From: an uncultured Eubacteriales bacterium
GTDB lineage: Bacteria; Bacillota_I; Bacilli_A; RF39; UBA660
NCBI GenBank assembly: GCA_905188025.1
Contig: CAJJKI010000004.1
Location: 8,629 to 72,628 of the forward strand
DNA length: 64,000 bases
Direction of reading: 5' to 3'
The translations under genes were made by a program, and so were the position numbers. Every line of letters begins with the position of its first letter. The first letter of the stretch is position 1. Below the pieces are notes generated by a model. The model saw only the letters and a list, made by a program, of their open reading frames with translations, was not told the origin of the DNA and did not search any database. This document shows positions 4,423 through 58,745 of this stretch, one piece after another.

Positions 4423-4447
4423 ATTAATACGTCCTTTCTTTAGTTAA

Positions 4448-4885
4448 TTATACTAAACTTAAGTTATTTTGTCTATCTTTATTTAACAAATCTAGCCAAA
4501 AATAGTCTTTATTTTTGAAATCACATACAAATATGTTATCAAGAGTGCTGTTTAAATCATTTAAAAATACAGAATATATATCATTTGTTTTGAGGATTAA
4601 GCATGTAGAAGTTATTGTTAAAATATTGTATTTTCCATTATTTAGAAAATGGATATTGTTATCACGTGTATAGTTTTGACTTGATTTATTAATGTTATAT
4701 ATGTATTCATTTAGAGCTAATTTATTAAATTCAATGGCAAATTTCTTGTAGTATCTATAGCTTAGTAATTCATCATATTCTTTTGTATAGTATAATTCTT
4801 CAATTATTTTGTACATTTTGTAAGGCCATTTTTTATATATGTAAGCAAAATATTTATTAATTTTAAAGATATAATATGTTCGCAT
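4448..4885 (-). CDS. SirA-like sporulation inhibitor of replication
   Basis: 145 aa. The N-terminus MRTYYIFKINKYF and C-terminus FVCDFKNKDYFWLDLLNKDR resemble B. subtilis SirA/YneE as I recall it (MERHYYTYLIKEEF... and ...MDFNSKRYGWLNPVKERNFV). It occupies the same position between tkt and yneF. Confidence 0.5.
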   Translation of the reverse strand: MRTYYIFKINKYFAYIYKKWPYKMYKIIEELYYTKEYDELLSYRYYKKFAIEFNKLALNEYIYNINKSSQNYTRDNNIHFLNNGKYNILTITSTCLILKTNDIYSVFLNDLNSTLDNIFVCDFKNKDYFWLDLLNKDRQNNLSLV

Positions 4886-4945
4886 AGTATCACCATATAA
4901 TATCTTAGCTTTTTAACTATGTATTTTTTGTCGAATTATGAGCTA

Positions 4946-6916: not shown

Positions 6917-7090
6917 TTCTCTTACCTACTTTCAAGTAAATTATATCATAATTCTGTTACGATTGAAAGTTTTTTAATTAAATTGATGATTATTGTATCT
7001 TTATTTTACTTATATGGCATTAATATGTGATAATGATCAAATTTTATTTTAGCTTTGTTGAAGTTTTTTTAATTTAATACTTTTATACAT

Positions 7091-7119
7091 AAAAAACCAC
7101 CAACGTAGTTAGTTGATGG
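7091..7119 (-). terminator. rho-independent terminator after rpmF
   Basis: The minus strand has the hairpin CCATCAAC-loop-GTTGGTGG followed by a T6 run. Confidence 0.7.
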
Positions 7120-7135
7120 AATCTATTATTTTAAA

Positions 7136-7315
7136 TTAGTTAGCTTTTTCTAATTTATTTGCTCCTTTATAAAATCCGCATTTGGGACAAACTCTATGTG
7201 GTCTTATCATTTCACCACAATTTGTACATTTTACTAAACCGTTTGCGGTAACTTTATAATGAGTTCTTCTCATGTTTTTTCTAGTTTTACTAATTTTTCT
7301 AAATGGAACTGCCAT
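7136..7315 (-). CDS. rpmF: 50S ribosomal protein L32
   Basis: Below the ORF-track size cutoff. Own translation gives MAVPFRKISKTRKNMRRTHYKVTANGLVKCTNCGEMIRPHRVCPKCGFYKGANKLEKAN (59 aa), with the canonical L32 N-terminus and a CxxC...CxxC zinc ribbon. Confidence 0.93.
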   Translation of the reverse strand: MAVPFRKISKTRKNMRRTHYKVTANGLVKCTNCGEMIRPHRVCPKCGFYKGANKLEKAN

Positions 7316-7316
7316 G

Positions 7317-7793
7317 TTATTTTTCCTCCTTTGCGTTTATTAAATTTTTTAAGTTGGCAAATGGATTGTTAGCAGTATTTCTTTCTTCTTGGTATTTTTC
7401 TTCAGAAATTACTCGCCAGCCATCTCCACTTAATTCAACATCTTCATTAGTGCTACGCACCTTTGAAGGAATTTCTACTAATATGTTTTGCCATGAAACA
7501 TCTATAAGATTTAGTTCTGTTTTGTCTTTGTCTAGTATTTCATCTAATTCACTGTCAAATTCATATTCAACAGGTTCTAGAGTTATGTCATCTTGAAGGG
7601 TCATACTTCCTTTAATGTTACCAGTCATGATTAATTCATTTTCTTCATCAATTTTTATTTTGGCGTTAATAGAAACATTATGCAATTCTTTAATTAGGGA
7701 GCCTTCTATATATTCATTTGGGATTGTAATGTTTTCGTTAATACTTATATATGGTACCCTATTAGTTATTAGTTTTGTTAAATCTATTTTCAT
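7317..7793 (-). CDS. YceD/YlbN (DUF177) family protein
   Basis: 158 aa acidic protein immediately upstream of rpmF, which is the conserved ylbN-rpmF arrangement. Confidence 0.75.
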   Translation of the reverse strand: MKIDLTKLITNRVPYISINENITIPNEYIEGSLIKELHNVSINAKIKIDEENELIMTGNIKGSMTLQDDITLEPVEYEFDSELDEILDKDKTELNLIDVSWQNILVEIPSKVRSTNEDVELSGDGWRVISEEKYQEERNTANNPFANLKNLINAKEEK

Positions 7794-7811
7794 TTTATCA
7801 CCTATAATCCT

Positions 7812-8654
7812 TTAATTGGGATATTCATCAAAAGTAATTTTTCCAAGATATCCATCACGTAAATCTTTAATTACTGTGGTGTAAACTTTTTCATAATTTA
7901 CTTCTTGATTTTTTATGGCTCCAATCTTTTTACCAATTGAATCAATAATTTCTATGATATCTTTACTTGTTGGTAAATTATATCTAGATATTATGTTATT
8001 TGGATAATATTTTAGCATGTTTTTAATGATATAGATTGCTACTTCTTCTGTATCTAATATTTCTTCTTTTATTGCAGTCATTGCTGCTAAATTTAAAGCA
8101 GTTTTTTCATCGTCTAATTTTGGCCATAATATTCCAGGAGTATCAAGCAGTTCAATTTGATTATTTATTCTAATCCATTCTAACTTTTTTGTGATTCCTG
8201 GTTTATTTCCAACATTAGTTGCTTTTTTGCCTACCAAACGATTGATTAAAGTTGATTTTCCGACATTTGGAATACCTAAAATTAATACTCGAAGTTTTCG
8301 TGGCATTAATCCCTTTTTTGCTCTTTTTTCATTTAACTCTTTTGTTAGTTTATTGGTCTCTTCATAAATTTTGTGAAGATTTGGATTGTTTATTAAATCT
8401 ACTGGAATTACATTATACCCAGCATGTTCGTAGTGTTCAATCCATTTCTGAGTCTTTTGCTGATCACACAAATCATATTTAGTCATTATAAGTATTCGAG
8501 GTTTGTCTTTAATTAATGCATCTATGTCTTTATTTTTTGATGATCTAGGAATTCTGGCATCTATTACTTCAAAAACAATATCAATCAAATCTATTTTTTC
8601 TTTGATTTCTCTTTTGGTTTTTGCCATATGCCCAGGATACCAATTTATTGCCAT
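7812..8654 (-). CDS. rbgA: ribosome biogenesis GTPase A
   Basis: Begins INWYPGHMAKTKREI. It has a circularly permuted GTPase with G4 TKYDL placed before G1 GIPNVGKST. I chose the ATG at 8654, preceded by GAGGTG, over the track's GTG at 8663. Confidence 0.9.
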   Translation of the reverse strand: MAINWYPGHMAKTKREIKEKIDLIDIVFEVIDARIPRSSKNKDIDALIKDKPRILIMTKYDLCDQQKTQKWIEHYEHAGYNVIPVDLINNPNLHKIYEETNKLTKELNEKRAKKGLMPRKLRVLILGIPNVGKSTLINRLVGKKATNVGNKPGITKKLEWIRINNQIELLDTPGILWPKLDDEKTALNLAAMTAIKEEILDTEEVAIYIIKNMLKYYPNNIISRYNLPTSKDIIEIIDSIGKKIGAIKNQEVNYEKVYTTVIKDLRDGYLGKITFDEYPN

Positions 8655-8667: not shown

Positions 8668-9183
8668 CTATCTTATTTTTTTTATTGGCCAAAGACTTAT
8701 TGTTGTTTTTCCTTCAATGTCTTTTTTATCAATTAATCCAATAATTCTACTATCTGAAGAAACTTGTCTATTGTCTCCTAATACTAGATATTTATCTTTG
8801 GGAATTTTATCGCAATTGCAAATACTTTTTAATGTAAAGTCTTCAGTATCAAAATTATACTCTTCAGTATTTACTTCATGACCGTTTATATATAAAGTAT
8901 TATTACGATATTCTACTGTTTCTCCAGGCAAACCGATTACTCTTTTAATTATTTCGCTTTTACCAATATTTATAACTACTATATCATTTCTTTTTATATC
9001 GCTAAAGTGATAACCAATTTTATTTAATAATAGTACTTGACCATCTTTTAAAGTTGGTACCATTGAATCTCCTACTACAATAACCGGGGTTACGATAAAG
9101 GTTCTTATTAGTACTACTACTATAATTATGACAGCATAAGGAATTAGATTTTTTATTTTCTCTTTCACTTTACCTCCACACAA
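8668..9183 (-). CDS. lepB: signal peptidase I (bacterial P-type, Ser/Lys)
   Basis: Contains the GDSMVPTL Ser box, the KRVIGLPGE Lys box and GDNRQVSSDSR. The start codon is uncertain (TTG at 9183 or GTG at 9168). Confidence 0.9.
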   Translation of the reverse strand: MCGGKVKEKIKNLIPYAVIIIVVVLIRTFIVTPVIVVGDSMVPTLKDGQVLLLNKIGYHFSDIKRNDIVVINIGKSEIIKRVIGLPGETVEYRNNTLYINGHEVNTEEYNFDTEDFTLKSICNCDKIPKDKYLVLGDNRQVSSDSRIIGLIDKKDIEGKTTISLWPIKKIR

Positions 9184-9218: not shown

Positions 9219-9575
9219 TTATCTTTCTTCTTTGATGTTATAACGACCTTCTCTGTTTCTCAAGAAATATAATTTTGCTCTTCTAACAACGCCTTTTTTA
9301 ACTACTTCGATTGAAGCAATGTTTGGGCTATGGATTGGGAACGTTTTTTCAACACCAACACCAGAAGATATTTTTCTAACTGTAAATGTTTCTGTTGCAC
9401 CTGTTCCTTTTCTTGAAATGACTACTCCTTCAAAGTTTTGGATTCTTTCTTTTTCTTTTCCACCTTTTACTTCAGTGATTTTACAACCTACATTAACAGT
9501 GTATCCAACTCTGAATTCAGGAATGTCTTTCTTGATTTGCTTTTCATTAATTTTTTCAATTAAATTTTTAGCCAT
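9219..9575 (-). CDS. rplS: 50S ribosomal protein L19
   Basis: Reads [27 protein letters not shown]...[10 protein letters not shown] chose the ATG at 9575, preceded by AAGGAGAG, over the track's GTG at 9584. Confidence 0.95.
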
Positions 9576-9840
9576 CGTATTCACTCTCCTTTTCTTTTAA
9601 CCACAATCATAAATCAGTAATAAATAGATCTAGCGGATTGCTTCATTTATAAATGATATCACAGTTATTTAAAAAATACAAGTTTTTTTTGTTTTATCAA
9701 GGCTTTTTGTAGAAATATTTAAGAAATACTAGTTTTTTATAGTGATTTTTTTAATACTTAAGAAATAAAAGTTTACTGTTTTTATGTGGACTCTGAATAA
9801 GAGACATAGTTTTGCAGTAAACTTTTTCAATATTTTATAA

Positions 9841-10368
9841 TTAAAGATTATCTTTTATTTCATCTTTTTCATAATACTTAACTATTTCATCGCCTGAGAT
9901 TTTTATTAATGTTGGTGCTGACACTTTTAAATCTTCTAGTGTTTTTGCTGATTTGTTACTTTCTTCTGATACATAGTTAGCATTTAAGGCTGATGATGTA
10001 TCAACTTTATAAACTTTAGAATCTGACAATTTTGAATTTATAATATTGCTTATAGCAGTATCTTCTTTATTGAAATCATAAAAATAAACATAGTATTCTT
10101 CTTCTGATTGTTTAAAAATTGAAGATGCTAAAATTGAATTTTTGACACTTGAAGTGTTTTCATTTGTATTATTATCTTTTTTTGTGTTAAACCAATTGGC
10201 TTCTTTAGTAATAAAGTTTACGGAAATTATATATATCAATGCTACTATAAATACTAATATACATGTTATTTTCACTAAATTCTTTATTTGATTCTTTTCT
10301 TTTATTTGCTCTTTTTCTAGGCTTTTTCCTTCTCTTTTCGCTTGTTTTCTTCTTAATTCTCTTCCCAT
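9841..10368 (-). CDS. hypothetical membrane-anchored protein
   Basis: 175 aa with a Lys/Glu-rich N-terminus, one TM helix (ITCILVFIVALIYIISV) and an extracytoplasmic domain. I recognise no family. Confidence 0.5.
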   Translation of the reverse strand: MGRELRRKQAKREGKSLEKEQIKEKNQIKNLVKITCILVFIVALIYIISVNFITKEANWFNTKKDNNTNENTSSVKNSILASSIFKQSEEEYYVYFYDFNKEDTAISNIINSKLSDSKVYKVDTSSALNANYVSEESNKSAKTLEDLKVSAPTLIKISGDEIVKYYEKDEIKDNL

Positions 10369-10493
10369 GTTATTTCCTCCAAGTTAATTATATAAAAAAA
10401 GAAGAAATTTGTAAAGTTATATATTTGTTTTATTTCTTCTATACATTATTCTTCTATATCATTGTATGTATTTATTATGATGAATATATTTTG

Positions 10494-10877
10494 CTATAAC
10501 CACTTTGCTACTTTAACTTCGCGGACCTCTTTTTTTTCATAACTACTAGTAAAATCAATTAACTTTTTTATTACTTCTTTGATGATACCTTTATTTTCAA
10601 ATGTTAATTCATCAACATTGACTATTTTTCTTAGACCTCTTTTGTATCTATTGTCTTTTATATATAAGTATAGGCTTCGATCTAGAGCTCTTATTAGCAT
10701 TAATTGATTTTCATTATTACCGTTGGCTGAAAAAATCAGCTCACGATACCAATCTATTAATTTTTTTGACAATATATCTCCATATGGGTATTCATAGTTT
10801 ACTATCTTATCATAATTTGGGCAATTCTCTAAAATCTTTTTTACATATTGAATATCTATTGTTTGTGTTTGTATCAT
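10494..10877 (-). CDS. hypothetical protein
   Basis: 127 aa clean ORF with no recognisable motif. Confidence 0.45.
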   Translation of the reverse strand: MIQTQTIDIQYVKKILENCPNYDKIVNYEYPYGDILSKKLIDWYRELIFSANGNNENQLMLIRALDRSLYLYIKDNRYKRGLRKIVNVDELTFENKGIIKEVIKKLIDFTSSYEKKEVREVKVAKWL

Positions 10878-29042: not shown

Positions 29043-29603
29043 TTATTTTACTGTTGCACCAGTAAAGTTCTCTGTCTTTGCTCCAATGTATCCTTGAAAT
29101 TCGGCATTTACAATATTATTGTCCACTTTATTGCCATCTATCCATAAGTATACGGTGAAAGAAGTATTTTCTTCTGATAATTTATAATTTTCAACGATAT
29201 TTACGATATTCTTTGTTGTATCATTGGTACCAACGAAGTTACCTTTGTTATAGTATACTTGAGTATTATTTTTAGTTCCGATTACTTCCCAGACGAATCC
29301 TTCGGTTGCTAAGTTTGAAGTTATTTTTTCGATATTTATGTATAATGTAGCTGTTGCTAAGGCACTTCCTTCTGCCATCTTAATATTAACAGTAGTGTTT
29401 AATCCATCTTCTTTTTTGCTTCCAAGATTTAGAGGACCACTAATAGTAGTTCCACCAGTATAAATTACATCGAACGTTTTACTTGTTCCTTCGACGTTTT
29501 CATTGCTACTGGCTGAGGCAGAAAAATAAGCATATGTTGAACCTATTACAGCAATAGTAAGTAACAATATTGACATTATAGAGTATAATACTTGCTTTCT
29601 CAT
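29043..29603 (-). CDS. secreted protein with SipW-cognate (TasA/CalY-type) signal peptide, paralog P1
   Basis: 186 aa. The N-terminus MRKQVLYSIMSILLLTIAVIGSTYAYFSASA carries the signal motif. The C-terminal family block is TVYLWIDGNKVDNNIVNAEFQGYIGA. Confidence 0.7.
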   Translation of the reverse strand: MRKQVLYSIMSILLLTIAVIGSTYAYFSASASSNENVEGTSKTFDVIYTGGTTISGPLNLGSKKEDGLNTTVNIKMAEGSALATATLYINIEKITSNLATEGFVWEVIGTKNNTQVYYNKGNFVGTNDTTKNIVNIVENYKLSEENTSFTVYLWIDGNKVDNNIVNAEFQGYIGAKTENFTGATVK

Positions 29604-29638
29604 TTCTTTACCTCATTTCATTTATCAACAACTTTTGG

Positions 29639-30211
29639 TTATTTTCTTTTTAATGCACTGTTAACTTTTATTTTAGCATTGAATCCTTTATTCATTAAAT
29701 AGTTTTGATCAGTGTTGTCTTCACTTAACCAAATATACAACTCATAATTATATGTTTCGGGATATGTTGTTGGTTCAATTATGGTTGTTGGAAGTACTAT
29801 TAAGCTAGCACTGTCTCCCAGAGTACTAAAATCTCCTTTTGCTACTACTTTATTATTTTGAACTAGTTCATATTTATAATTAGGAATTTTTAATTCACTG
29901 GCCATATTTATGTTTGTTAACATTATTTCAAGACCGATTTGATATTTTTTTAAGTTTTCATTAAATGTAATGTTGAAACTATTCTTATTAGCATATGTAT
30001 ATCTATCTTCATCATAAATTGGCATAGTGGTAGTGGAGCTGATAAATTCAGTTTGGGTGAATATTACTGTCGGAGTTTCTTTGATTGTTGTACCATTGAT
30101 ATTTGTTTCGGCATTTGAATATGCGTACCAAGCATAACTAACGCCAAACATTAAACCAAAGATTGCTATTATAGTGACAGTAAGTATAATTATTATTTTT
30201 TTAAATTCCAA
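29639..30211 (-). CDS. secreted protein with SipW-cognate signal peptide, paralog P2
   Basis: 190 aa. The N-terminus is MEFKKIIIILTVTIIAIFGLMFGVSYAWYAYSNAE and the C-terminal block is ELYIWLSEDNTDQNYLMNKGFNAKIKV. Confidence 0.7.
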   Translation of the reverse strand: MEFKKIIIILTVTIIAIFGLMFGVSYAWYAYSNAETNINGTTIKETPTVIFTQTEFISSTTTMPIYDEDRYTYANKNSFNITFNENLKKYQIGLEIMLTNINMASELKIPNYKYELVQNNKVVAKGDFSTLGDSASLIVLPTTIIEPTTYPETYNYELYIWLSEDNTDQNYLMNKGFNAKIKVNSALKRK

Positions 30212-30439
30212 CTTATATCACCCGCATTTCCTATTCTATTAACTATTATATATATTATAATATCATATTTTTTTGATAATATCAATCATAAAATTGGGTT
30301 CTATGAGACTTTTTGATTTGTATTTTAAATTTAGAGTTATTTTTGATAATTATTTTATATTAATAATATTCTTAAGGTATGTTTTTAGTATGATATTTTT
30401 TTATATGAATATTAATTGTATTTTGATTTGGTGAGTCAT

Positions 30440-30478
30440 GCAAGAAAAAGAACTCTATAATTCTCTTAGAGTTCTTAC
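30440..30478 (-). terminator. rho-independent terminator overlapping the gap stop codon
   Basis: The minus strand has AAGAACTCTA-loop-TAGAGTTCTT followed by TTTTTC. The TAG stop (30457-30455) lies inside the 3' arm of the stem. Confidence 0.75.
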
Positions 30479-31447
30479 CATTTGATATGAATAACCCATT
30501 TCATTATCATACCATGCTACAACATGAATTAATTGTTTTCCATTTACTTCAATTATATTTGTTAGATTTCCATCAATGGTAGCTCCACAGGTAGAAGAAA
30601 TGATATCTGATGATACAATAGGATCTTCAGTATATTCAAGTGTTTCATTGGAATTTTTCTTGAATGTTTCATTAATTTCTTCTTTAGAAGTGTGCTTTTC
30701 TACTTCTACTACTAGGTCAACAAGTGAACCGTCTGATACTGGTACTCTTATGGCTGATCCTAGAATTAATCCTTCTAATTCAGGCAAGACTTTGCCAATT
30801 GCTTTGGCGGCTCCGGTAGAAGTTGGCACCATATTCATTGCACAGGCTCTTCCACGTCTTTCCATAATTCCTTTTTTGTGAGCAACATCGAGGGTAACTT
30901 GATCGTTTGTATAAGCATGAATTGTAGTCATGTTACCTTTTATTATTTTGAAGTTATCATTTAATACTTTTAGTACAGGAGCAAGGCAGTTGGTAGTACA
31001 AGAAGCTGCGGATACTATGATGTCATCTTTGGTTAGGATATCGTGATTTACATTGTATACCACTGTTTTCATTTCACCTTTTCCTGGGGCTGATATTAAA
31101 ACTTTCTTGGCTCCGGCTGTAATGTGTTCGTTAGCTTTTTCTAAGCTGGTAAATTTTCCGGTACACTCTAAGACAACGTCAATATTTAATTCTTTCCACG
31201 GAAGATTAGTTGGTTCCATTTCTTTGTAAACTTTTACTTGGCGTCCATTTACATAAATATTGGCATCATCGTGAGTAACGTTTTTGTTATATCTTCCATG
31301 ATTGGTATCATATTTTAGTAAATATGCTAATTCTTCAGGAGTTGATAAGTCATTTACTGCTACTACTTCCATGTCATCTAATTCTTCAATAATTCTAAAA
31401 ACTAATCGACCAATTCGGCCAAATCCATTAATGGCAATTTTTTTCAT
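30455..31447 (-). CDS. gap: type I glyceraldehyde-3-phosphate dehydrogenase
   Basis: 330 aa with INGFGRIGR, active site SCTTNCLAP and WYDNEMGYS. Confidence 0.96.
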   Translation of the reverse strand: MKKIAINGFGRIGRLVFRIIEELDDMEVVAVNDLSTPEELAYLLKYDTNHGRYNKNVTHDDANIYVNGRQVKVYKEMEPTNLPWKELNIDVVLECTGKFTSLEKANEHITAGAKKVLISAPGKGEMKTVVYNVNHDILTKDDIIVSAASCTTNCLAPVLKVLNDNFKIIKGNMTTIHAYTNDQVTLDVAHKKGIMERRGRACAMNMVPTSTGAAKAIGKVLPELEGLILGSAIRVPVSDGSLVDLVVEVEKHTSKEEINETFKKNSNETLEYTEDPIVSSDIISSTCGATIDGNLTNIIEVNGKQLIHVVAWYDNEMGYSYQMVRTLREL

Positions 31448-31475
31448 TTTATTCCTCTTTTCTTTTATATATTTT

Positions 31476-31955
31476 TTATTTTATTAATACTTCTCCATTT
31501 TGAACAAGATCCTCAATTTTACCTTTTTCAAATCCTACTAGGGCTCCTAAAATAATTTCTACTTGTTGTGTGCTATTATTAGTTAATTTTATTGATACTG
31601 TCCTAGTTTGAGATGGTTTTATTATATTTGTTAGGACGTCTTGTGAATCTTCTGATAATGATGCTGTAAAGCCATTTGGGGTGGTTACAGGACTTATCAT
31701 GTAATAATACATACCATATTTTATCGTTGAAGTGTATGGATTTTCAAGAGTTATATCAACAAATTTCACTTCATTTTGAGAGACTATAATTTGTTTACTG
31801 GTAGTTTCTTTTAGAGAGTAAATTAAGTTGTGGTCAGCAGTTGAGTTATCTAATTTGGTATTCTCTTCATTGTAAGCAAAAGTGGTATATAGTGAAACAA
31901 TTCCTAGTGATAATAGACACATTATGATTATTATACTGATAGTTCTTTTTTTCAT
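31476..31955 (-). CDS. small secreted protein with SipW-cognate-like signal peptide, divergent paralog P3
   Basis: 159 aa starting MKKRTISIIIIMCLLSLGIVSLYTTFAYNEEN. The mature part looks beta-rich but lacks the YxWxD C-terminal block. Confidence 0.55.
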   Translation of the reverse strand: MKKRTISIIIIMCLLSLGIVSLYTTFAYNEENTKLDNSTADHNLIYSLKETTSKQIIVSQNEVKFVDITLENPYTSTIKYGMYYYMISPVTTPNGFTASLSEDSQDVLTNIIKPSQTRTVSIKLTNNSTQQVEIILGALVGFEKGKIEDLVQNGEVLIK

Positions 31956-31993
31956 ATTTTACCTCTTTTCTATATGATCTGAATTTTTTAAAA

Positions 31994-32758
31994 TTATGTA
32001 ATTATAAAATTGATTATATCTGCAAAGGTTAATCCCCATATGTAGAGAATTATTCCTGACATACTTAAGAATGGTCCAAAGGGAATAATGTTATCTTTTT
32101 TGAATATTAAAAGGAATAAGGCAATTGGAAAAGCAATGAAGGTAGCAAAGAAAATATTGCATACAGCCATCGGATATCCTATTACTAGACCTATTAAAAA
32201 CATTAGTTTTATATCTCCACCACCTAAGGACTCTTGTTTGAACATTAAATCACCAGCTTTTTTTACAAGGAGCATCGTTAGAAATGCACCAATTCCGGCA
32301 ACAACTCTTAGTGAAGTTTCATAGGCTCCTATAGAGAACAAGTCTACTATAATTATGCCAAACGAAGCTATTATTAATACTTCATCTAATATTATCATGT
32401 GCTCAATGTCACTTATTATGATAATTATTAGGCTAGATACAAAAATGATAGCAGTGATTAATTCAAGTGTAAAGCCAAATACGTGATAACAAACAGCAAA
32501 TAATATACCGGTGCATATCTCTATTAAAAGATAACTTATTGGTAATTTCGTGTGGCACTTACGGCACTTTCCACCTTGAAAAATGTATGATAATATGGGA
32601 ATTAATTCATACCATTTCAATTGATGCTGACATTTTTCACAATGGGAAGCTGGGCTTACAATCGAACCGCCTTTAGATAATCTAGTGGCAATTACGTGGT
32701 AAAATGAACCCATTACGCTTCCAAAGATGAAAAATATTAATAAATATATTTTTTCCAT
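31994..32758 (-). CDS. prepilin peptidase (A24 family, PilD/ComC-like)
   Basis: 254 aa with an N-terminal CxxC...CxxC (SHCEKCQH...GKCRKCH), a multi-TM body and both catalytic Asp contexts (ISDIEHM and GGGDIKLMF). Confidence 0.88.
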   Translation of the reverse strand: MEKIYLLIFFIFGSVMGSFYHVIATRLSKGGSIVSPASHCEKCQHQLKWYELIPILSYIFQGGKCRKCHTKLPISYLLIEICTGILFAVCYHVFGFTLELITAIIFVSSLIIIIISDIEHMIILDEVLIIASFGIIIVDLFSIGAYETSLRVVAGIGAFLTMLLVKKAGDLMFKQESLGGGDIKLMFLIGLVIGYPMAVCNIFFATFIAFPIALFLLIFKKDNIIPFGPFLSMSGIILYIWGLTFADIINFIIT

Positions 32759-32777
32759 TTAAAACTCCCCTTACCTA

Positions 32778-34166
32778 CTATAAAATTGTACTATATATGT
32801 CAAACATCGGTACTACAACTGCTAAGAGGATGACACCTACTATAACAGCTAATAAAACTATCATGATTGGCTCAATTAAACTTTTTAATCTTGATACAAT
32901 ATTTGTTTGTTCTTCTTGATAATAAGCTGCTACATGTTCCATCATTTCTCCTAGCTTACCTGTTTTTTCACCAGTTACTAACATTTCATAAGCTGTTTCT
33001 GGGAAAGCCCATTGTCCTTTAAAAGCTACGGATACGCCATTTCCTTTACTTAGGTTAACTATGGCATCATTAATCATTTTTTTATATATTTCATTTTCAG
33101 TTATCTTACTTAAGATATCCATACTATCTGTGATAAAAACGTCGTGTTTGATAAGCGTAGAAAAAGTACTTGTAAAGGTTACTAGTTGATTATATTTAAC
33201 AATATCTTTAACAACTGGAATATGCATAATTAGATACTGTACACCGTATTTAAATTTATTTGATGAATGGTATAAGAGATAAAATATGATTACTACAAGA
33301 GCGATAACTCCAATGATATAGTACCAATTTCCAGTAATGAAATCACTAATATTTATGATGGCTACGGTTATGCCTGGTAAATTTGATCCGGTTGATTCAT
33401 ACATTGAGGTAAATGAAGGCACTACATAGGTTATAACGAAAGTCAAAACGGCAACGGCAAAAACCATTAATACTGAAGGGTATGTCATGGCATTAATTAT
33501 TTGTTTACGATTACTATCTTGTCTTTTATAGTATGCAGCCATATCATCTAGAACGCCTGTTAAATCTCCAGTCATTTCAGAGGTTTTTAGCATATTTATT
33601 AGCATTTTAGGGAACACTTTACCTTGTTTTTCAAGACATTCGCTAAATGATAATCCTCTATTTAAATCAAATACTATTTTTCGATATAGCATTTGAGTAT
33701 TTTTCTTTTTGGCTTGACGACTAAGTATTTCCATTGAATCCAAGAGAGGTATTCCGGCTTTTACATAAGTTGATAACTGTGTCAAAAAGAAATTTAAATC
33801 TTTTGATTTCATTTTTGTTGATGATGACATATTGGCTAAGCCTAATTTTGTTGATAGTTTATCTTCATCAATAGAGATGATTGTTAAACCTTTATTTATA
33901 AGAAATGATTCAACATCTACTTTGTTCTCGGCATCAAAATAGCTTTCAATGGTGCTTCCTGTTTGATCTTTTACTTTATATTTAAATCTTTTTAGTTTTA
34001 CTGTTGTTTTTTTGTCGGCACCTCGATCAGAAAAATCTTTTTTTACTTGTGCTGTGACCTTGTTTTGATTTTGATTAGAAGCCACTTGAGGTGTAAGATT
34101 ATTTGAATTTTGTTGATTATGATTGCCTTGAGAATTAATTTGATTATTGTTCAAGTCATTCACCAC
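32778..34166 (-). CDS. type IV pilus/T2SS platform protein (GspF/PilC/ComGB family)
   Basis: It has two T2SSF repeats (FLTQLSTYVKAGIPLLDSMEIL... and FTSTFSTLIKHDVFITDSMDIL...), three TM segments and the C-terminal EPIMIVLLAVIVG...PMFD. The N-terminal extension is Asn/Gln-rich. The start is uncertain (GTG at 34166 or TTG at 34154). Confidence 0.88.
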   Translation of the reverse strand: MVNDLNNNQINSQGNHNQQNSNNLTPQVASNQNQNKVTAQVKKDFSDRGADKKTTVKLKRFKYKVKDQTGSTIESYFDAENKVDVESFLINKGLTIISIDEDKLSTKLGLANMSSSTKMKSKDLNFFLTQLSTYVKAGIPLLDSMEILSRQAKKKNTQMLYRKIVFDLNRGLSFSECLEKQGKVFPKMLINMLKTSEMTGDLTGVLDDMAAYYKRQDSNRKQIINAMTYPSVLMVFAVAVLTFVITYVVPSFTSMYESTGSNLPGITVAIINISDFITGNWYYIIGVIALVVIIFYLLYHSSNKFKYGVQYLIMHIPVVKDIVKYNQLVTFTSTFSTLIKHDVFITDSMDILSKITENEIYKKMINDAIVNLSKGNGVSVAFKGQWAFPETAYEMLVTGEKTGKLGEMMEHVAAYYQEEQTNIVSRLKSLIEPIMIVLLAVIVGVILLAVVVPMFDIYSTIL

Positions 34167-34268
34167 CTTTTTATTTTTCCATATATTATAATTGTATCAC
34201 AAATATTTATATTTTTAAAAACTTTTTTACATTTTTTACATATATTATGTTAGGAAGGGATATTAATT

Positions 34269-34731
<463 letters not shown>

Positions 34732-34733
<2 letters not shown>

Positions 34734-34776
34734 AAAGACTTCATAAGTGTATAAACTTAATTGAAGTCTCTTTTTT
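34732..34776. terminator. bidirectional rho-independent terminator
   Basis: AGACTTCA (34736-34743) pairs with TGAAGTCT (34762-34769), flanked by A5 on the left and T6 on the right. It sits between the convergent yqfQ-like and P4 genes. Confidence 0.75.
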
Positions 34777-34780
34777 GTTA

Positions 34781-35416
34781 TTATCCTGCTACTTGTACCA
34801 TTGATCCATCCCATTGAAGAGTAAAGCTTAAATTTTGCATTGGATCACTATTTACTTCACCAACATTTTGATGAGTATATGTGCTATCTAACCATACATA
34901 TAAATAATATGTTACAGTTTTTTCAGCAGTATTTGCTGGTACATCAAGATCTAGAGTAAGTACTGTTGAACCAGCTGTTAATTTTCCTGCAAATGTACCA
35001 GTTAAGTTTCCAGTACCGGCAGCACAACTAGTACTTGATGTCGTTAAAGCGTAATTTAATTTTCCTAACTCTGTGCTACTTGGAGTAGATACTCCAGCGG
35101 TTACATCAGTAACTTTTAAATTAGCAGTTAATTTTGCAGCTACGCTTGTAGCATTTGTATAAGTTATGGCTACAGTTTTTTTCATGGCATATGTTGAATT
35201 TGTGCATGTTGTTGGTGCTAAAGAAGAAACTGTTGATGTTCCATTACCTTCAATAGATGCACTCATATTGGGAGCATCCACTGTGAATCCTACATTTGTT
35301 CTTTGCGCAGTGTTACTTGTCCAAGACCAGTAGGCATATGTTCCACCAGCTACAATGGCTGCTATTAATAATACAGCAATTACTGAAATTATAATTTTAT
35401 TCTTATTTTCTTTCAT
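34781..35416 (-). CDS. secreted protein with SipW-cognate signal peptide, paralog P4 (Thr/Ser/Ala-rich)
   Basis: 211 aa starting MKENKNKIIISVIAVLLIAAIVAGGTYAYWSWTSN. It has two Cys, and the C-terminal block is YYLYVWLDSTYTHQN. Confidence 0.7.
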   Translation of the reverse strand: MKENKNKIIISVIAVLLIAAIVAGGTYAYWSWTSNTAQRTNVGFTVDAPNMSASIEGNGTSTVSSLAPTTCTNSTYAMKKTVAITYTNATSVAAKLTANLKVTDVTAGVSTPSSTELGKLNYALTTSSTSCAAGTGNLTGTFAGKLTAGSTVLTLDLDVPANTAEKTVTYYLYVWLDSTYTHQNVGEVNSDPMQNLSFTLQWDGSMVQVAG

Positions 35417-35441
35417 TTTTTCACCTCTTTTTAATTAGTTA

Positions 35442-36014
35442 TTATTGTGTTTGTGCAGCTGATGCGTGGATATATCCACTATATGCATTTTGATTATTAC
35501 TCATCATTTCATTTGTTACCTTGCTAGCATCAACCCAAAAATATACGAAATAGTATTTTGTACTTGTTGTTAGATCACTAGTATCAGTATATAATGTAAG
35601 ATTTCCTGATTTAGTAATAGTTCCACCAGCTACTTTATTATTAAAATTACTTGCACAAGATGATGTTGTTGTTGTACTTGTACATACGACATAATTGATA
35701 GCTCCTGATGTGGTTAATAGTGAAGTTGACTCTGTAGTTAATGTTATAGTTAATTTTCCTGCTACGGAATTATTAGCTAAGGCTGCACTTAATTGCTTTA
35801 CAGTGGCTGTTGCTGGTGTAGCTGTACTAAGTACTGGTACTGAACTGATTGTTCCGCCTCCAACGTAATTAATAACGAAGTTTTTGGTAGATACATTGTA
35901 TGTTCCATTAGTAACAGTTGCTGTTGCACTAAGCCAAGCAAAAGTTGCTCCAGCTATTAATACTACAAAGAATATTATACCAATAATAGTTCCAATTAAT
36001 TTTTTTTGATTCAT
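35442..36014 (-). CDS. secreted protein with SipW-cognate signal peptide, paralog P5 (Thr/Ser/Ala-rich, likely major subunit)
   Basis: 190 aa starting MNQKKLIGTIIGIIFFVVLIAGATFAWLSATA. It has two Cys (CTSTTTTSSC), and the C-terminal block is YYFVYFWVDASKVTNE...YSGYIHASA. AGGAGGA lies 7 nt upstream of the ATG. Confidence 0.7.
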   Translation of the reverse strand: MNQKKLIGTIIGIIFFVVLIAGATFAWLSATATVTNGTYNVSTKNFVINYVGGGTISSVPVLSTATPATATVKQLSAALANNSVAGKLTITLTTESTSLLTTSGAINYVVCTSTTTTSSCASNFNNKVAGGTITKSGNLTLYTDTSDLTTSTKYYFVYFWVDASKVTNEMMSNNQNAYSGYIHASAAQTQ

Positions 36015-44391: not shown

Positions 44392-45144
44392 ATGAAGAAA
44401 AAATATTTACTATTAGGATTAATATTTGTTTTACTTATAGGAGTTATTGGCGGAGGATACTTTTATTTTAGTACTAGAAATAATGATAAAACTCCTCATG
44501 AAATTACTGAACCTAGTAAGGAAGTAATTAAGAATGATGGGGATGAAAATGATGAGAAAGATAAATATAAAGAAATTATTCAGGGATATAAAAACGAGTT
44601 TAATAATAATGACGTTGTTGGGGAAATAACAATAGTTAATACTGATTATAAAAAAGCCATTATGCAAGCGAGTGATAATGACTATTATTTGAATCATACT
44701 GAAGACAATACTAGTAGTTATATGGGAGCAATATATTTAGACTTTAGAGTTGATATTGATAGTGGGCGTAAGTTACTTATTTATGGACACAATTCTGCTA
44801 ATATAGATATGCCATTTAAGGTGTTAGAAAAATATTATGATTATAATTATTACAAAGAACATGAATATATAAAAATTACTACTGAAAATAAAGTTAGATT
44901 ATATAAAATATATGCTGTTTATGTGGAGCCAACGGATTTTAGTTATATGCAAACTGACTTTAATAATGATGATGAATGGTATGAACATATTAAGCACTTT
45001 AAAAATAAAAGCATGTATGATACTGGTGTTGATATAAGTAGTAATGATAATATTTTGATTTTACAAACTTGTAGTACACATAGAGACTATATAAATTATA
45101 AACGTAAATTTATGCTAGTAATTGCTAAGGAAGTTAATGAATAA
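44392..45144 (+). CDS. srtB: class B sortase
   Basis: N-terminal TM helix, then YLNHT...GAIYLDFR...LIYGHN and the catalytic LILQTCS. Confidence 0.8.
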   Translation: MKKKYLLLGLIFVLLIGVIGGGYFYFSTRNNDKTPHEITEPSKEVIKNDGDENDEKDKYKEIIQGYKNEFNNNDVVGEITIVNTDYKKAIMQASDNDYYLNHTEDNTSSYMGAIYLDFRVDIDSGRKLLIYGHNSANIDMPFKVLEKYYDYNYYKEHEYIKITTENKVRLYKIYAVYVEPTDFSYMQTDFNNDDEWYEHIKHFKNKSMYDTGVDISSNDNILILQTCSTHRDYINYKRKFMLVIAKEVNE

Positions 45145-45188: not shown

Positions 45189-46832
45189 TTATTTTTTGCG
45201 ATTTTTGATTATCATTCTAATAATATTTAAAAGTAAAAGAAATGAAATAGCTCCAATAAAATATATAGTATAATTAGTTTTCTTTTTGATATTAATAATA
45301 TACGTGGTTGGAGTATCATTATTTATAGTTATTGTTATGATACTACCATCTTTTAAGTCACGGTTACCATTAATGGTTATTTTATCGTAATCTTCATTGA
45401 TATCAAACTCTAATGATGATTCATCGCCTATTTTTAAAGTATAATCTAATTTTGATATATCAAAGTTTAAATCATAACCTTTTACTTGAATTTTCAAAGG
45501 ATCTTTTGGCTTTTCAATAACGGTAATAATGGTACTTGCAGTTATGGTGCCTTCTTCATTTGATACGGTAATAGTTGTTGTACCTTTGCTAAGAGCTGTT
45601 AGAACGCCATCTTTAATAGTGGCTACTTTTTCATCACTACTTGTCCAAATTGGATTATTGATTGTGGAAGACTCAGGAGTGCTAATTGTTTCAAGAGATG
45701 TCTTACTTCCTACATAGACTGTTTCTTTGTCATTTTTAAATTTTATTGATTCAATTGGTGGACCAATAACTGTCAGTTTACATATAACTTCTTTTTTTCC
45801 TTCATCACTGATTACTTTTATTTCAGCAGTACCTGGCTTTATAGCAGTAATTACACCTTTTTCTACAATAGCTACTTTTTCATTACTACTTTTCCAAGTG
45901 ACTTTTTGGTTAGCGGCATATGATGGTTCGAAATTTACAGTTAATGTTTCTTCTTTTCCGGCTACTAGTGTTAGTTCAGTTTTGTTAAGGGTAATATTTT
46001 TTAATTCTTTTGAAATAGCGTTAACTGTAACTTTACATTTGGCAACATAGCCTCCATCGTTGGCAATGGCTATTATTTCGGTGGTACCGGGGCTTTTTGC
46101 GGTGACGTTACCATTTGAATCAACGGTAGCAATGGCGGTATTGTTGCTTTTCCAAGTGACTTTTTTATCAGTGGCATTATTTGGAGAAAAGGTGACATTT
46201 AATTTAGACGAAGAATTTTCATTTATGGTAAGAGTATCTTTTATACTGATACTTTTTAGGGATATCTTATCAATAACTTCTACTTGCATATTAATATTTT
46301 TATTTGTTCCTGGAGCGGATATGGTTAAATATGTTTTTCCAGTTTTTCTTCCTGTAATAGTACCACTATTATCAATTGTAACAATATTTGTATCAGCGAT
46401 ATAATATCCTAATTTTTTATTGCTGGCATTATTTGGTGAAATACTAATACCTAAACTTCTACTTTCGTTTAATAAAATAGTTAGGCTAGTTGATGAAACT
46501 GAAATGCTGTCTATAGGAATATAGTCTCTACTAACAGTAATTGTACCATAGGCATGATTACCATTTCTATCAGTGACAGTGATATAAGCTTTTCCATAAT
46601 TTTTGGCAAGGGCGACACCATTACTAGAAATAGTTACAGTACTTGGGCTGCTACTTTCCCATGTGTAGTCACTTATAGAATTGCTACTTCCTATTACTTT
46701 TAAATTCATTGTATCGTTTATACCCATAATTAATTCATTGGGGGTTATTAAAAGTTGTTGTGAGCTTGCATAAACATATTTAGTATTAAAAAATGAAATT
46801 ATAGTTATGAGTGCTATTAGTATTTTTTTCAT
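45189..46832 (-). CDS. surface protein with tandem bacterial Ig-like (Big_2) domains and a C-terminal TM anchor
   Basis: Signal peptide MKKILIALITIISFFNTKYVYA (ATG at 46832). At least five repeats of the ...VTWKSSN..VATV...G.VTA...GTA.I pattern follow. The C-terminal anchor is FIGAISFLLLLNIIRMIIKNRKK. No LPxTG-like motif is present. Confidence 0.75.
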   Translation of the reverse strand: MKKILIALITIISFFNTKYVYASSQQLLITPNELIMGINDTMNLKVIGSSNSISDYTWESSSPSTVTISSNGVALAKNYGKAYITVTDRNGNHAYGTITVSRDYIPIDSISVSSTSLTILLNESRSLGISISPNNASNKKLGYYIADTNIVTIDNSGTITGRKTGKTYLTISAPGTNKNINMQVEVIDKISLKSISIKDTLTINENSSSKLNVTFSPNNATDKKVTWKSNNTAIATVDSNGNVTAKSPGTTEIIAIANDGGYVAKCKVTVNAISKELKNITLNKTELTLVAGKEETLTVNFEPSYAANQKVTWKSSNEKVAIVEKGVITAIKPGTAEIKVISDEGKKEVICKLTVIGPPIESIKFKNDKETVYVGSKTSLETISTPESSTINNPIWTSSDEKVATIKDGVLTALSKGTTTITVSNEEGTITASTIITVIEKPKDPLKIQVKGYDLNFDISKLDYTLKIGDESSLEFDINEDYDKITINGNRDLKDGSIITITINNDTPTTYIINIKKKTNYTIYFIGAISFLLLLNIIRMIIKNRKK

Positions 46833-47005
46833 ATTAATGTTCCTTTCGTGTGAAGAATATTTATTAAGATTTAACTCCACTACTCTATCTTAATTAAATT
46901 ATAGTATATTTCTTTCTAATAGTAAAGAAAAAAGAGTTAACTTTTATTAAACACATGTTAACTACATATATAGTTTTATGTATAAGTTCACTCTTTGTTT
47001 ATTAT

Positions 47006-56508: not shown

Positions 56509-58707
56509 TTATTTAATGATTATTCTAGTAGTTAAATAGTTACTTGCTGTATCAGTAGTAGCGCTATAACTAAAAATACTAGAATTTTTTTGATTAGCAA
56601 TGCCTCCCCTAGCTAACCAATTGTTAGTGGTATCAATCCATGTGCCAGTAACATTAGATAACTCTTTGGTAGCATCTCCTAAAATGAATGTGTCTTTATA
56701 ATATAAATCATAGTCTTTATTGCTGATTGGAATATTTGCAAAATTACTATTATCAAGTGATAACTCATTAAGCGTTTCAGTGTAATTTGACATTGTAAAC
56801 TCAGCAGCACTACCAGACATATCATATACTCCATAACTATTACCAGTAGTGGTATCGCTTAAATTTGTACCACTTACGTAAGTGTTATTTGGTGATATAG
56901 TTTGGCATGTATTATTATCACAAACACCATATTTGCTATGTGAAAGATATGCTATTGCTCCCCATTCGCTATTTTTTATCATGCTGTAATTAGTACCAAG
57001 TTTTTTGATTTGTTGATAGTAATCTGATAAATAATTATTGACCCAAACATTAGCATTTGGTTTTGATTCGATTTGGTTATTATTATTTGATACTTCGTAT
57101 TTGCTTACCCAAAAGCCAGTTAACTCGGTATCTATATTAGTAAATGCTGGATGAGTATAATATTTATCATTATCATTTTTAGTTATTTTAGTTATTAGTA
57201 AATCATCGCTATAGCAAGTATTATCTTTACAATGAATTACTCCTGAAGAATCGGTATTTTTTTCAAAGATTATATCGATACCAGTTTCTTCAGCATTGTA
57301 ACTAGAGATATTTTCTCCGGTAGCATTCCATAATTTATATTTAAAACGTGGAATCCATACATAATAAGAATTTATATCTTTATTATTAATAGTAGTGCCA
57401 AGTGGTTGTGATTTGTAGTATTCTTTTAGAGTCATTGGTGTAAATTCGTTATAACCTTCTATTAAGTTTTCATATACAACATCAATACTTGTTTTATAAT
57501 TGCTGTTTATAACATTTTCTGAAATAATATCGTTATAGATATAAATATCACCAACTGTAATATTAGATACGGTATTATCTTCTTTATTATTGCCTATTTT
57601 AAAGCTTGATGATGAAATTATATTTCCTCTTATATTTGTACTTGATATTTTTGCTCCGTTGGCATAGAAATTTAAATTGTTACCATCGTAAGTGAATCCA
57701 AGAATATACCAAGTATTTTCACTGATAGTATATGTTTCAGAGCTAACTGAAACTCCATCATTTTCAAAAACAAATTTCTTTGTTTCTAAATTATAATAAT
57801 AATTTATTTTATCATTTGTGATTAAAGCTATTTTTCCGCTTGCTAACTCATTTGCTTTTATTCTTAAAATTGCACTTATGTTAGAGTTGTTATAATTTGA
57901 TAAACCAATATCTAATGGTGAACCTTCAAGAATAAGATTGCCATTATTGATGGTAGGATTATTTAGTTTCAAATCATTGTTACGAGTTAAATCATAAATT
58001 ACTTTTTCACTATCATTGATAATTACACTGTTAGCCCAAATGCTAGCGTTATAATCATACCAACGATATGACTCGATTGTGTTGCTTTCATCAGCTTTAC
58101 GCCATACTTTAGCATTTTCATCATAATATATTGGAATCATTTTATCTGATTGATTTGGTCTATTAGCACCACTATTATCAAGAGTTTTATAGATAGCTGT
58201 TCCTGAAGATACTACTTTAGCAATAAACTTTTTGCCTAATTCAATATTTGGAGTATCCATATCTAACCAAATATTAATTTTGAATGTTTGTTCTTCTCCA
58301 GGATAAATTATTAAATCAGATGCAATCACATTATTTGTAGTAAATAAGGTATGTGGTAAATTATCGTTGACTTTTACTTTGATATATTTGTTATCAATAA
58401 CATTCTCATTATCACTTGATAGCATTTTTAGATCATACTTATATATTAGATTACCAGTATTTTTTATAGTTAAAGTGTATGGCTCTAGAATGGTACCAGC
58501 ACTATCGTTCATTGGAAATGCTGACTCTAGAGTTATTTGTTTATCTTCGGTGAATTTTAAATCAAGTAGTCCAGTATTATAGTTAAAGGTGTTAGTGGTA
58601 TCAGACTTGATGAATAATGAATATGTGGTTCCACTTAAACTAACGATTACGAATAAAACGGCTAAGGCCATAATATAATTCTTCTTAGCTTCAATAAATC
58701 TTATCAT
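56509..58707 (-). CDS. large modular secreted protein: SipW-cognate signal, TasA/BsaA-like N-domain, LamG-like jelly-roll and C-terminal FGE-sulfatase/C-type-lectin-like domain
   Basis: ATG at 58707 (AGAGGTGA upstream). The signal is KKNYIMALAVLFVIVSLSGTTYSLFIKSD. The family block is FKINIWLDMDTPNIELGKKFIAKVVS. The LamG pattern is NTWYILGFTYDGNNLNFYANGAKI...FKIGNN...VGDIYIYNDIISEN. The FGE-like pattern is GFWVSKYEVS...SEWGAIAYL...YGVYDMSGSAAEF...WLARGG. Confidence 0.7.
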   Translation of the reverse strand: MIRFIEAKKNYIMALAVLFVIVSLSGTTYSLFIKSDTTNTFNYNTGLLDLKFTEDKQITLESAFPMNDSAGTILEPYTLTIKNTGNLIYKYDLKMLSSDNENVIDNKYIKVKVNDNLPHTLFTTNNVIASDLIIYPGEEQTFKINIWLDMDTPNIELGKKFIAKVVSSGTAIYKTLDNSGANRPNQSDKMIPIYYDENAKVWRKADESNTIESYRWYDYNASIWANSVIINDSEKVIYDLTRNNDLKLNNPTINNGNLILEGSPLDIGLSNYNNSNISAILRIKANELASGKIALITNDKINYYYNLETKKFVFENDGVSVSSETYTISENTWYILGFTYDGNNLNFYANGAKISSTNIRGNIISSSSFKIGNNKEDNTVSNITVGDIYIYNDIISENVINSNYKTSIDVVYENLIEGYNEFTPMTLKEYYKSQPLGTTINNKDINSYYVWIPRFKYKLWNATGENISSYNAEETGIDIIFEKNTDSSGVIHCKDNTCYSDDLLITKITKNDNDKYYTHPAFTNIDTELTGFWVSKYEVSNNNNQIESKPNANVWVNNYLSDYYQQIKKLGTNYSMIKNSEWGAIAYLSHSKYGVCDNNTCQTISPNNTYVSGTNLSDTTTGNSYGVYDMSGSAAEFTMSNYTETLNELSLDNSNFANIPISNKDYDLYYKDTFILGDATKELSNVTGTWIDTTNNWLARGGIANQKNSSIFSYSATTDTASNYLTTRIIIK

Positions 58708-58745
58708 TAGTATCACCTCTTATTCTTATAATTTTATTTGTTATA

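Follow-up and report, generated by a model that had tools for sequence, protein, structure and literature searches.

Gene organization of the locus

Five small genes encoding predicted secreted proteins, here named P1 to P5, are clustered in a 64-kb window (the whole stretch of DNA analysed, from contig CAJJKI010000004.1; ~28% G+C) of a lineage of uncultured gut 'Bacilli', also labelled 'Tenericutes', which is represented by metagenome-assembled genomes (MAGs) alone. Profile comparison indicates that four of the encoded proteins share one domain, named the P-domain here, which recurs in two large proteins encoded next to a SipW-like signal peptidase in the same window, and the set may form a remote branch of the SipW-dependent TasA/BsaA-type fibre systems. 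The same window protein recurs across many ENA and Logan contigs. The genes on which the argument rests are as follows.

P1, 29043-29603, minus strand: 186 aa; P-domain paralog, full-length homolog of P5
P2, 29639-30211, minus strand: 190 aa, TTG start; most conserved P-domain paralog
gapA (glycolytic), 30455-31447, minus strand: 28 bp downstream of P3
P3, 31476-31955, minus strand: 159 aa; Ig-like, with a P-type N-terminus, not a paralog
pilD, 31994-32758, minus strand: PilD-type prepilin peptidase/methyltransferase (Pfam A24_N_bact E 8e-31, Peptidase_A24 E 2e-11)
pilC, 32778-34166, minus strand: PilC/GspF-type platform protein (Pfam T2SSF E 7e-51; NCBIfam GspF 293 bits, PilC 274 bits)
YqfQ-like open reading frame, 34269-34733, plus strand: 154 aa; between P4 and pilC, on the opposite strand
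P4, 34781-35416, minus strand: 211 aa; predicted secreted P-domain paralog, Thr/Ser-rich
P5, 35442-36014, minus strand: 190 aa; small predicted secreted P-domain protein, Thr/Ser/Ala-rich, first gene of the P5-P4 pair
735-aa protein, 56509-58716, minus strand: signal, P-domain, Laminin_G_3 and an FGE-sulfatase-like C-terminal region
555-aa protein, 58746-60413, minus strand: directly downstream of sipW; predicted cytoplasmic tail, one membrane span and a C-terminal P-domain
sipW, 60435-61091, minus strand: SipW-like signal peptidase I of the endoplasmic reticulum (ER)/archaeal type (TIGR02228, 96.5 bits)

An earlier note on this DNA had placed five minus-strand open reading frames (ORFs) at the positions of P1 to P5 and had quoted their N-terminal motifs; both the positions and the motifs proved correct. 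Each of the five is preceded by a Shine-Dalgarno-like sequence (AGGAGG for P5), and orthologs of P2 have ATG or GTG at the position of its TTG start. The common N-terminal layout consists of a short Lys/Arg-rich stretch, a hydrophobic segment of ~18-20 residues and G-x-[ST]-[YF]-A followed by an aromatic residue, from which P3 departs slightly (..SLYTTFA|YNEE.., the vertical bar marking the predicted cut here and below); a motif scan of the whole window in six frames found this layout confined to these genes. Promoter-like sites numbered 73 against 48 (standard deviation 7) in shuffled sequence, with good -35/-10-like sites upstream of P5, and terminator-like sites stood at the shuffled level; the combined promoter and terminator scan did not resolve transcription units.

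The P-domain family

The alignment of each family drew on database matches and on orthologs in conserved synteny from about 12-20 genomes at species level, and the resulting profiles were compared with hhalign. P5 aligned with P1 over the full length (99.5%, E 3e-22) and with P4 over 157 columns, through the WLD block (98.8%), and P2 aligned over nearly its full length with both P1 (97.5%) and P4 (97.9%). The comparison of P5 with P2 gave 85.6%, the aligned part being only the C-terminal block Y-x-[WI]-W-[LIV]-D ... F-x-G-x-I. In contrast, P3 showed no aligned similarity to P5 (1.2%) or to P2 (11%). On the basis of these profile comparisons, P1, P2, P4 and P5 possess a common domain that is absent from P3. 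The internal and C-terminal blocks that the earlier note had read by eye as shared among the small ORFs are thereby confirmed, and its five paralogs are reduced to four: P3, considered as the fifth, is ruled out by the hhalign values of 1.2% and 11% and by a different fold. As modelled and profiled here, the P-domain is a beta-sandwich of ~160 residues carried by six proteins of the window, namely P1, P2, P4, P5, the 735-aa protein and the 555-aa protein.

P5 has 149 homologs, all of them metagenomic and unannotated; the orthologs of P2 are 31-72% identical, and P4 varies in length from 187 to 391 aa across species. An exhaustive search with a hidden Markov model (HMM) of the mature domain recovered 1150 representative clusters (counted at 50% identity) at E<=1e-3 and 300 at E<=1e-10, and a word-indexed search with the superfamily profile returned only P2 and P5 proteins of the same clade. 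Among the best 150 superfamily matches listed, nearly every one has the P-domain beginning near residue 27, and multidomain architectures of 350-1052 aa are frequent; large surface proteins that combine the domain with LRR_5, DUF285 or Flg_new account for many members of the superfamily.

The P5-P4 pair itself is variable among relatives. A tandem P5 duplicate is present in locus L018 (8927-10308), three contigs of the RUG13428 MAG (L010, L014 and L017) each carry one P5-P4 pair, and a single gene in L025 (5124-5777) joins a P5-type N-terminus to a P4-type body. This variable copy number and architecture suggests rapid diversification or recombination. Conserved Cys pairs were also seen in P5 and in P4.

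P-domains in the large proteins of the sipW operon

The earlier note had also reported that the C-terminal block recurs in two large proteins encoded with sipW, and this was borne out when a superfamily HMM built from 125 representatives was run against the 110 ORFs of the window (the E-values refer to this set): residues 10-322 of the 735-aa protein matched with E 3e-10 and residues 409-551 of the 555-aa protein with E 3e-6. A single-sequence hhalign comparison of the 735-aa N-terminus with the P2 profile was not significant. The 735-aa protein begins with the signal ..SGTTYS|LF.. and contains a Pfam Laminin_G_3 domain (E 2e-8). A bridge between the small and large members is provided by a 618-aa protein (L007:7948-9804), in which a P4-like N-terminus (99.5%) is combined with a homolog of the 735-aa C-terminal region (E 5e-26). 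A SipW-type cleavage motif is absent from the 555-aa protein, which, judged by its sequence, is probably anchored in the membrane as a partner and not released as a cargo. Because P3 is unrelated and the 555-aa protein is probably anchored, the earlier proposal that one SipW appears to serve at least seven paralogous cargoes becomes one of six P-domain proteins and one unrelated protein, of which the 555-aa member is probably not cleaved; the count of one SipW applies to the 64-kb window.

Signal peptides and the predicted cleavage junction

The NCBIfam model of the SipW-dependent-type signal, TIGR04088, has a curated cutoff of 19 bits. P1 exceeded this cutoff with 20.9 bits, and P5 (17.6 bits) and P4 (16.1 bits) scored below it (E 0.003-0.01), so that the model matches three of the five ORFs and one of them above the cutoff; across the superfamily it matched 16 of the 125 representatives at E<=0.01 (best E 4e-6). 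The predicted junction [ST]-[YF]-[AGS]|[WYF] is conserved in all families, and the two positions directly after the predicted cut hold aromatic or bulky hydrophobic residues in all five ORFs. The earlier assignment of a SipW-type signal to all five ORFs is supported in part, by the junction motif in each, and by the signal model for P1 and, below the cutoff, for P4 and P5, but not for P2 and P3.

The n-region and h-region of P5 (KKKLIGTIIGV...AGATFA|WL) resemble the corresponding regions of TasA and CalY. Among 61 homologs of P5 that are 38-64% identical overall, residues 1-28 are far more conserved than the mature domain, and K5, I7, G8, G12, F16, L19, A23, T24 and A26 are invariant. Such conservation is unusual for a discarded signal peptide and could mean that the segment is retained. 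As reported in PMC10269814, E. coli LepB cleaves poorly when an aromatic residue occupies P2', and the TasA site is incompatible with LepB.

The SipW-type peptidase and its gene neighbourhood

The ORF at 60435-61091 matched the archaeal-type signal peptidase I model TIGR02228 with 96.5 bits (cutoff 51.85) and the Bacillus SipW equivalog model with 85 bits (cutoff 190). Its best PDB relatives are human SEC11C and SEC11A, with which the motifs SGSM-P, HR-I and GDNN are aligned. By these sequence criteria the enzyme is a SipW-type ER/archaeal (SEC11-like) peptidase and, because 85 bits falls below the equivalog cutoff, not a strict SipW ortholog.

The linkage between this peptidase and the P-domain was assessed in 80 metagenomic loci carrying relatives of the window SipW (35-100% identity), whose ORFs were scanned with the P-domain HMM; the counts rest on the 78 loci in which the sipW ORF could be placed, with flanks of up to 8 kb on each side. 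P-domain ORFs were present in 41 of the 78, and every one of the 74 P-domain ORFs found there lies on the same strand as sipW and within 3 kb of it. In many of these loci, two to four small P paralogs stand directly upstream of sipW and a short anchored protein of the 555-aa type directly downstream (for example, L050:1966-5253, L055:137-2951 and L079:6597-8654, with others in L046-L093, where sipW is 35-65% identical), and the sipW-adjacent P-domain proteins carry the junction ..GAT[FY]A[YW]F... This neighbourhood is the strongest new evidence for the link to SipW. Of ten P-domain proteins encoded beside sipW in other metagenomes, two are touched by TIGR04088 and eight are missed, and none is matched by Pfam Peptidase_M73.

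Relation to TasA, BsaA and camelysin

The gathering threshold of Peptidase_M73 (PF12389) is 22.5 bits, and no protein of the window reaches it; the single match was P4, with 17.2 bits and E 0.005 over the N-terminal 68 residues. The same model matched 8 of the 125 superfamily representatives, and two of five that were re-scanned pass the threshold (P0429 with 31.6 bits and P0420 with 25.2 bits). In addition, single representatives among the 125 matched TIGR04090, the model of BsaA (E 2e-5), and TIGR04087, that of TapA (E 6e-4); TIGR04090 matched no window protein. The AlphaFold2 (AF2) monomer of P5 has a mean predicted local distance difference test (pLDDT) value of 81.5 and forms a beta-sandwich over residues 45-188, with residues 15-41 disordered at the N-terminus, as is the mature N-terminus right after the predicted cut (residues 27-44). 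In Foldseek searches of the PDB, this model weakly matched the Pyrobaculum bundling pilus 7ueg_A (E 1.2e-3, probability 1.0, TM-score 0.37) and the TasA fibre 8aur_A (E 1e-2, probability 0.97, TM-score 0.41). The P-domain is best described as a remote but real, currently unmodelled branch of the TasA/BsaA/camelysin superfamily, in which the formal thresholds of Peptidase_M73 and TIGR04090 are unmet. The TasA/BsaA relatedness proposed earlier therefore holds as a distant one, through a few model matches in the superfamily and the weak structural matches, and does not extend to a passing score for any window protein.

P3

P3 has 332 homologs, of which the 120 listed are all 156-160 aa long; the aligned subset is ~50-70% identical to the window protein. 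Its AF2 model (pLDDT 83.5) combines an Ig-like sandwich with two helices, a hydrophobic one at the N-terminus and a short conserved one (..ADYNLIYSLKE..). The P3 profile gave no meaningful match by sequence in the PDB. Foldseek matches to GOLD, MSP and PapD-like domains were weak (E 7e-4 to 2e-2, TM-score 0.3-0.5), and the list includes the pilus chaperones FaeE, FimC and CsuC. A Pfam match to WxLIP_PGBD was sub-threshold (E 4e-4), and two members of the P3 family carry a precomputed WxLIP_PGBD match. A role of P3 as a chaperone or adaptor, drawn from this model, is speculation.

Type IV pilus genes around the small P genes

In agreement with the earlier note, the small P genes are interleaved with type IV pilus genes, with pilC-pilD lying between P5-P4 and P2-P1. 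The order DUF4015-yutD-P5-P4-(yqfQ, opposite strand)-pilC-pilD-P3-gapA-P2-P1-amidase was found in 12 of 20 species-representative loci and again in two further divergent metagenomic contigs. With gaps of 19 bp between pilC and pilD, 38 bp between pilD and P3 and 28 bp between P3 and gapA, the pilC-pilD-P3-gapA genes look like one unit, an arrangement that is kept in relatives. In L022 and L023, P5-P4-yqfQ-pilC-pilD is retained though both flanks differ. The YqfQ-like ORF is rich in Met, Gly and Ala at its N-terminus and contains a run of Asn, and its position is kept in all relatives, including L022 and L023.

A second case of proximity is found in L024, from a distant 'Tenericutes' MAG, where a complete Tad locus (3933-8472; two TadE genes, a TadZ-like ATPase, a T2SSE ATPase, TadB and TadC) precedes P2-like and P5-like genes (9396-10546), yebC alone lying between them. 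In the 64-kb window itself, no PilB ATPase and no canonical pilin were found. A true N_methyl pilin is encoded near pilD in L022, which indicates that the type IV machine has ordinary substrates of its own.

The P proteins were also considered as prepilins and pilins and rejected as both. Strict and relaxed scans of the window found no G|FxxxE or G|xxxxE site followed by a hydrophobic helix, confirming the earlier observation that the P proteins have no prepilin site; moreover, the conserved motif comes after the hydrophobic stretch, and the modelled fold is all-beta, not alpha-beta.

A preprint on Clostridium perfringens (PMC11580942) reports that BsaC, encoded in the sipW-bsa operon, requires type IV pilus genes (PilA3, PilB2, PilC1, PilD and PilMNO) to be secreted efficiently, and that BsaA of the same operon depends on pilus genes in part; the gene-neighbourhood analysis of that preprint does not list pilus genes.

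Other genes of the window

Three further genes were noted in the window.

LepB-type (Ser/Lys) signal peptidase I, 8668-9183, minus strand: motifs read from sequence
Class B sortase, 44392-45144, plus strand: 250 aa; phmmer against PDB sequences, E 8.5e-25 to Lmo2181/SrtB
Big_2-repeat protein, 45189-46880, minus strand: 563 aa, five Big_2 repeats, adjoining the sortase

The sortase ORF contains IYGHN and LQTCS motifs and was missed by Pfam (E<=1e-3) and by public contig annotations. At the C-terminus of the Big_2 protein, a KNRKK tail comes after a hydrophobic segment, an arrangement that resembles a cell-wall-sorting signal; no clear LPXTG or NPQTN was seen in it. The window also contains comEA-comEC, an amidase with LysM repeats, and sporulation genes (spoIIGA-sigE and a Sigma70-type sporulation sigma gene), which indicate that the organism sporulates.

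Proposed mechanism and alternatives

By analogy with characterized systems, we consider it probable that diverged TasA/BsaA-like proteins are inserted by Sec, cleaved by SipW and assembled into donor-strand surface fibres or a matrix. In this mechanism, the pre-proteins would be inserted into the membrane by Sec, and SipW (60435-61091) would cut after [ST]-[YF]-[AGS], freeing an aromatic-rich N-terminal segment. The freed segment could then serve as the donor strand for the next subunit, as in TasA, BsaA and archaeal bundling pili, giving rise to surface fibres or a matrix. P5 and P4 (first of the genes, fast-evolving, Thr/Ser-rich and variable in copy number) may be the bulk or exposed subunits, with P5 as the candidate major subunit, and the more conserved P1 and P2 may be alternative or minor subunits or adaptors. 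The base could be formed by the anchored 555-aa protein, a candidate membrane anchor or nucleator, and the 735-aa protein, with its LamG and FGE-sulfatase-like regions, could be an adhesive or tip subunit. The placement of the P genes round pilC-pilD may reflect help from a type IV machine in passage across the wall, and this is the weakest point of the proposal. The analysis establishes the paralogy, the type of signal and of peptidase, the clustering of P-domain genes with sipW and the remote family link; from these, cleavage by SipW, polymerisation, the subunit roles and a part for the pilus genes are inferred.

Several results weigh against the proposal. The link to TasA is weak at every single step: the Peptidase_M73 matches cover the signal and the first strands only (profile positions 3-77 of 196), the mature P5 family has no invariant Asn, Glu or Lys and hence no conserved N-E-K isopeptide triad, the Foldseek TM-scores of 0.37-0.41 are similar to the scores of generic jelly-roll and carbohydrate-binding module (CBM) folds, and the P5 and superfamily profiles gave no meaningful sequence match to any PDB structure. 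TIGR04088 matched neither P2 nor P3, nor any of 13 P2 orthologs and 12 P3 orthologs; since the model also misses eight of the ten sipW-adjacent proteins, existing models are insensitive in this lineage; the misses beside sipW do not weaken the link to SipW, and those for P2 and P3 carry little weight. Furthermore, ~25 kb separates sipW from the small P genes, and the window also encodes an ordinary LepB-type peptidase, so that the organism has both peptidase types. In L008 the P5-P4 pair stands away from pilC-pilD, and the block includes unrelated housekeeping genes (gapA, yutD and queA), so that much of the closeness to pilC-pilD may simply have been inherited as gene order. A more specific tie is favoured by the sub-block kept in L022 and L023, by the Tad-adjacent P genes of L024 and by the C. 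perfringens preprint (PMC11580942).

An alternative that we regard as unlikely is that the P proteins are clients or parts of the adjacent type IV machine, with P3 as a PapD-like chaperone and SipW secondary or irrelevant for the small P proteins; in its variants, they would be cargo of a Gram-positive type II-secretion-like piston formed by PilC and PilD, or non-canonical filament subunits. The P5-to-P1 order in 12 of 20 species loci, the sub-block that survives rearrangement in L022 and L023, the 19-bp and 38-bp gaps of pilC-pilD-P3 and the Tad-adjacent P genes in L024 all point in this direction, whereas housekeeping genes fill the synteny block and P-domain genes elsewhere cluster with sipW rather than with pilus genes. 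The dependence of BsaC secretion on pilus genes in C. perfringens (PMC11580942) also counts for it; in the window, however, neither PilB nor a canonical pilin is present, and the machine in L022 has its own pilin. Similarly, the resemblance of the P3 model to PapD/MSP-type Ig domains, including those of pilus chaperones, is countered by the weakness of the Foldseek matches, and the invariant Gly8 after a Lys-rich leader in P5 is not part of a G|FxxxE site, a Gly at the n/h boundary being seen in P5 only. The beta-sandwich fold, as opposed to the alpha-beta fold of pilins, also disagrees with a filament subunit of the usual kind.

To the same low degree of likelihood, the P proteins may be ordinary Sec-exported or anchored wall, surface or spore proteins that are processed by LepB or left uncleaved and form no fibres, the motif being merely a family-specific signal end. 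A LepB-type peptidase (8668-9183) is available for such a route, and the failure of TIGR04088 on P2 and P3 would fit it, but TIGR04088, TIGR04090, TIGR04087 and Peptidase_M73 all find matches within the superfamily. The P5 hydrophobic segment is unusually conserved and could be retained, whereas the disorder of the mature N-terminus in the monomer model is what would be expected of a donor strand; the aromatic or bulky residues after the cut in all five ORFs likewise speak against LepB, which in E. coli is blocked by an aromatic P2', as reported in PMC10269814. The marginal structural similarity to TasA, the sporulation of the organism and the superfamily proteins with LRR_5, DUF285 or Flg_new, which would suit a generic N-terminal surface module, favour ordinary export, and the tight and repeated linkage of the P-domain to sipW opposes it. 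Less probable again is a combined apparatus in which a PilC/PilD piston (Tad in the distant relative) extrudes or nucleates SipW-processed donor-strand fibres through the wall and P3 acts as a membrane-tethered PapD-like chaperone, capping subunits prior to assembly; if true, the locus would be a genomic signature of the 'Gram-positive type II secretion' that has so far been proposed from C. perfringens genetics alone.

Significance and comparison with known systems

TasA/BsaA-type donor-strand fibres are a major class of biofilm scaffolds in Gram-positive bacteria and archaea. The Peptidase_M73, TIGR04088 and TIGR04090 models miss the P-domain branch almost completely, and this branch, with its ~1150 clusters, is found commonly among low-GC gut Bacilli that have not been cultured, a group with hardly any described surface structures. 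Many 'hypothetical' surface proteins would be annotated by a P-domain profile, including large adhesin-like fusions with LRR_5, DUF285 and LamG.

SipW-TasA/BsaA systems, operons with several paralogs and a functional type IV pilus link are already known. The earlier note had regarded the set as much larger and more dispersed than the tapA-sipW-tasA and sipW-bsaA paradigms; because a widespread family, and operons that contain several paralogs of TasA/BsaA, have already been described (PMC11580942), the expansion is less exceptional than was claimed, and the dispersed layout stands, with small members ~25 kb from sipW. What is new is the large unannotated branch of the superfamily and the split layout, in which the large members are encoded with sipW and the small members 25 kb off round pilC-pilD; a comparative-genomic link of P genes to type IV filament machines is hinted at.

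The Ig-like sandwich of P3 is similar in size to those of PapD-like chaperones, MSP-GOLD domains and DUF916 (WxLIP_PGBD) of WxL loci. Contrary to PapD, which has two domains, P3 has one, together with an N-terminal hydrophobic helix, and its matches lie below the usual thresholds.

Archaeal bundling pili (AbpA, 7ueg), with related archaeal TasA-like filaments, are a further known system for comparison, and 7ueg and the TasA fibre are the two fibres best matched by the P5 model. In these pili an archaeal-type signal peptidase processes small beta-sandwich subunits, which form donor-strand fibres; the P-domain system is set apart from them by the TM-score of 0.37, by the lack of sequence similarity and by its bacterial host.

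The tapA-sipW-tasA operon of Bacillus subtilis and the sipW-tasA/calY genes of B. cereus resemble the window in that the gene of an ER/archaeal-type peptidase accompanies those of its clients (predicted clients in the window), that an aromatic or hydrophobic residue comes after the signal end G-x-T-[WYF]-A, and that the mature domain, as modelled for P5, is a beta-sandwich whose N-terminal segment is free. The same domain also occurs in accessory proteins of TasA systems, TapA being comparable to the 555-aa and 735-aa proteins. On the other hand, the domain in the window has ~160 rather than ~230 residues and is present in six copies rather than one or two, four of them small and ~25 kb from sipW beside pilC-pilD, and the proteins stay below the Peptidase_M73 cutoff with no sequence match to TasA structures.

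The sipW-bsaA-bsaB-bsaC operon of C. perfringens shares with the window SipW-linked TasA-like paralogs and a class B sortase gene nearby (PMC11580942). In contrast to Bsa, the P5 family shows no conserved N-E-K triad, no VWA protein accompanies it, and TIGR04090 matches no window protein. The Bsa fibres are reported to be membrane-anchored and to have a functional connection with type IV pili (PMC11580942), whereas the pilus link of the window is one of physical gene order, of a kind not listed in the neighbourhood analysis of PMC11580942. A role of pili in the export of TasA-like proteins rests at present on that one preprint and one species, and the placement of the P genes at pilC-pilD, together with the Tad-adjacent case, provides an independent lead on such pilus-aided export.

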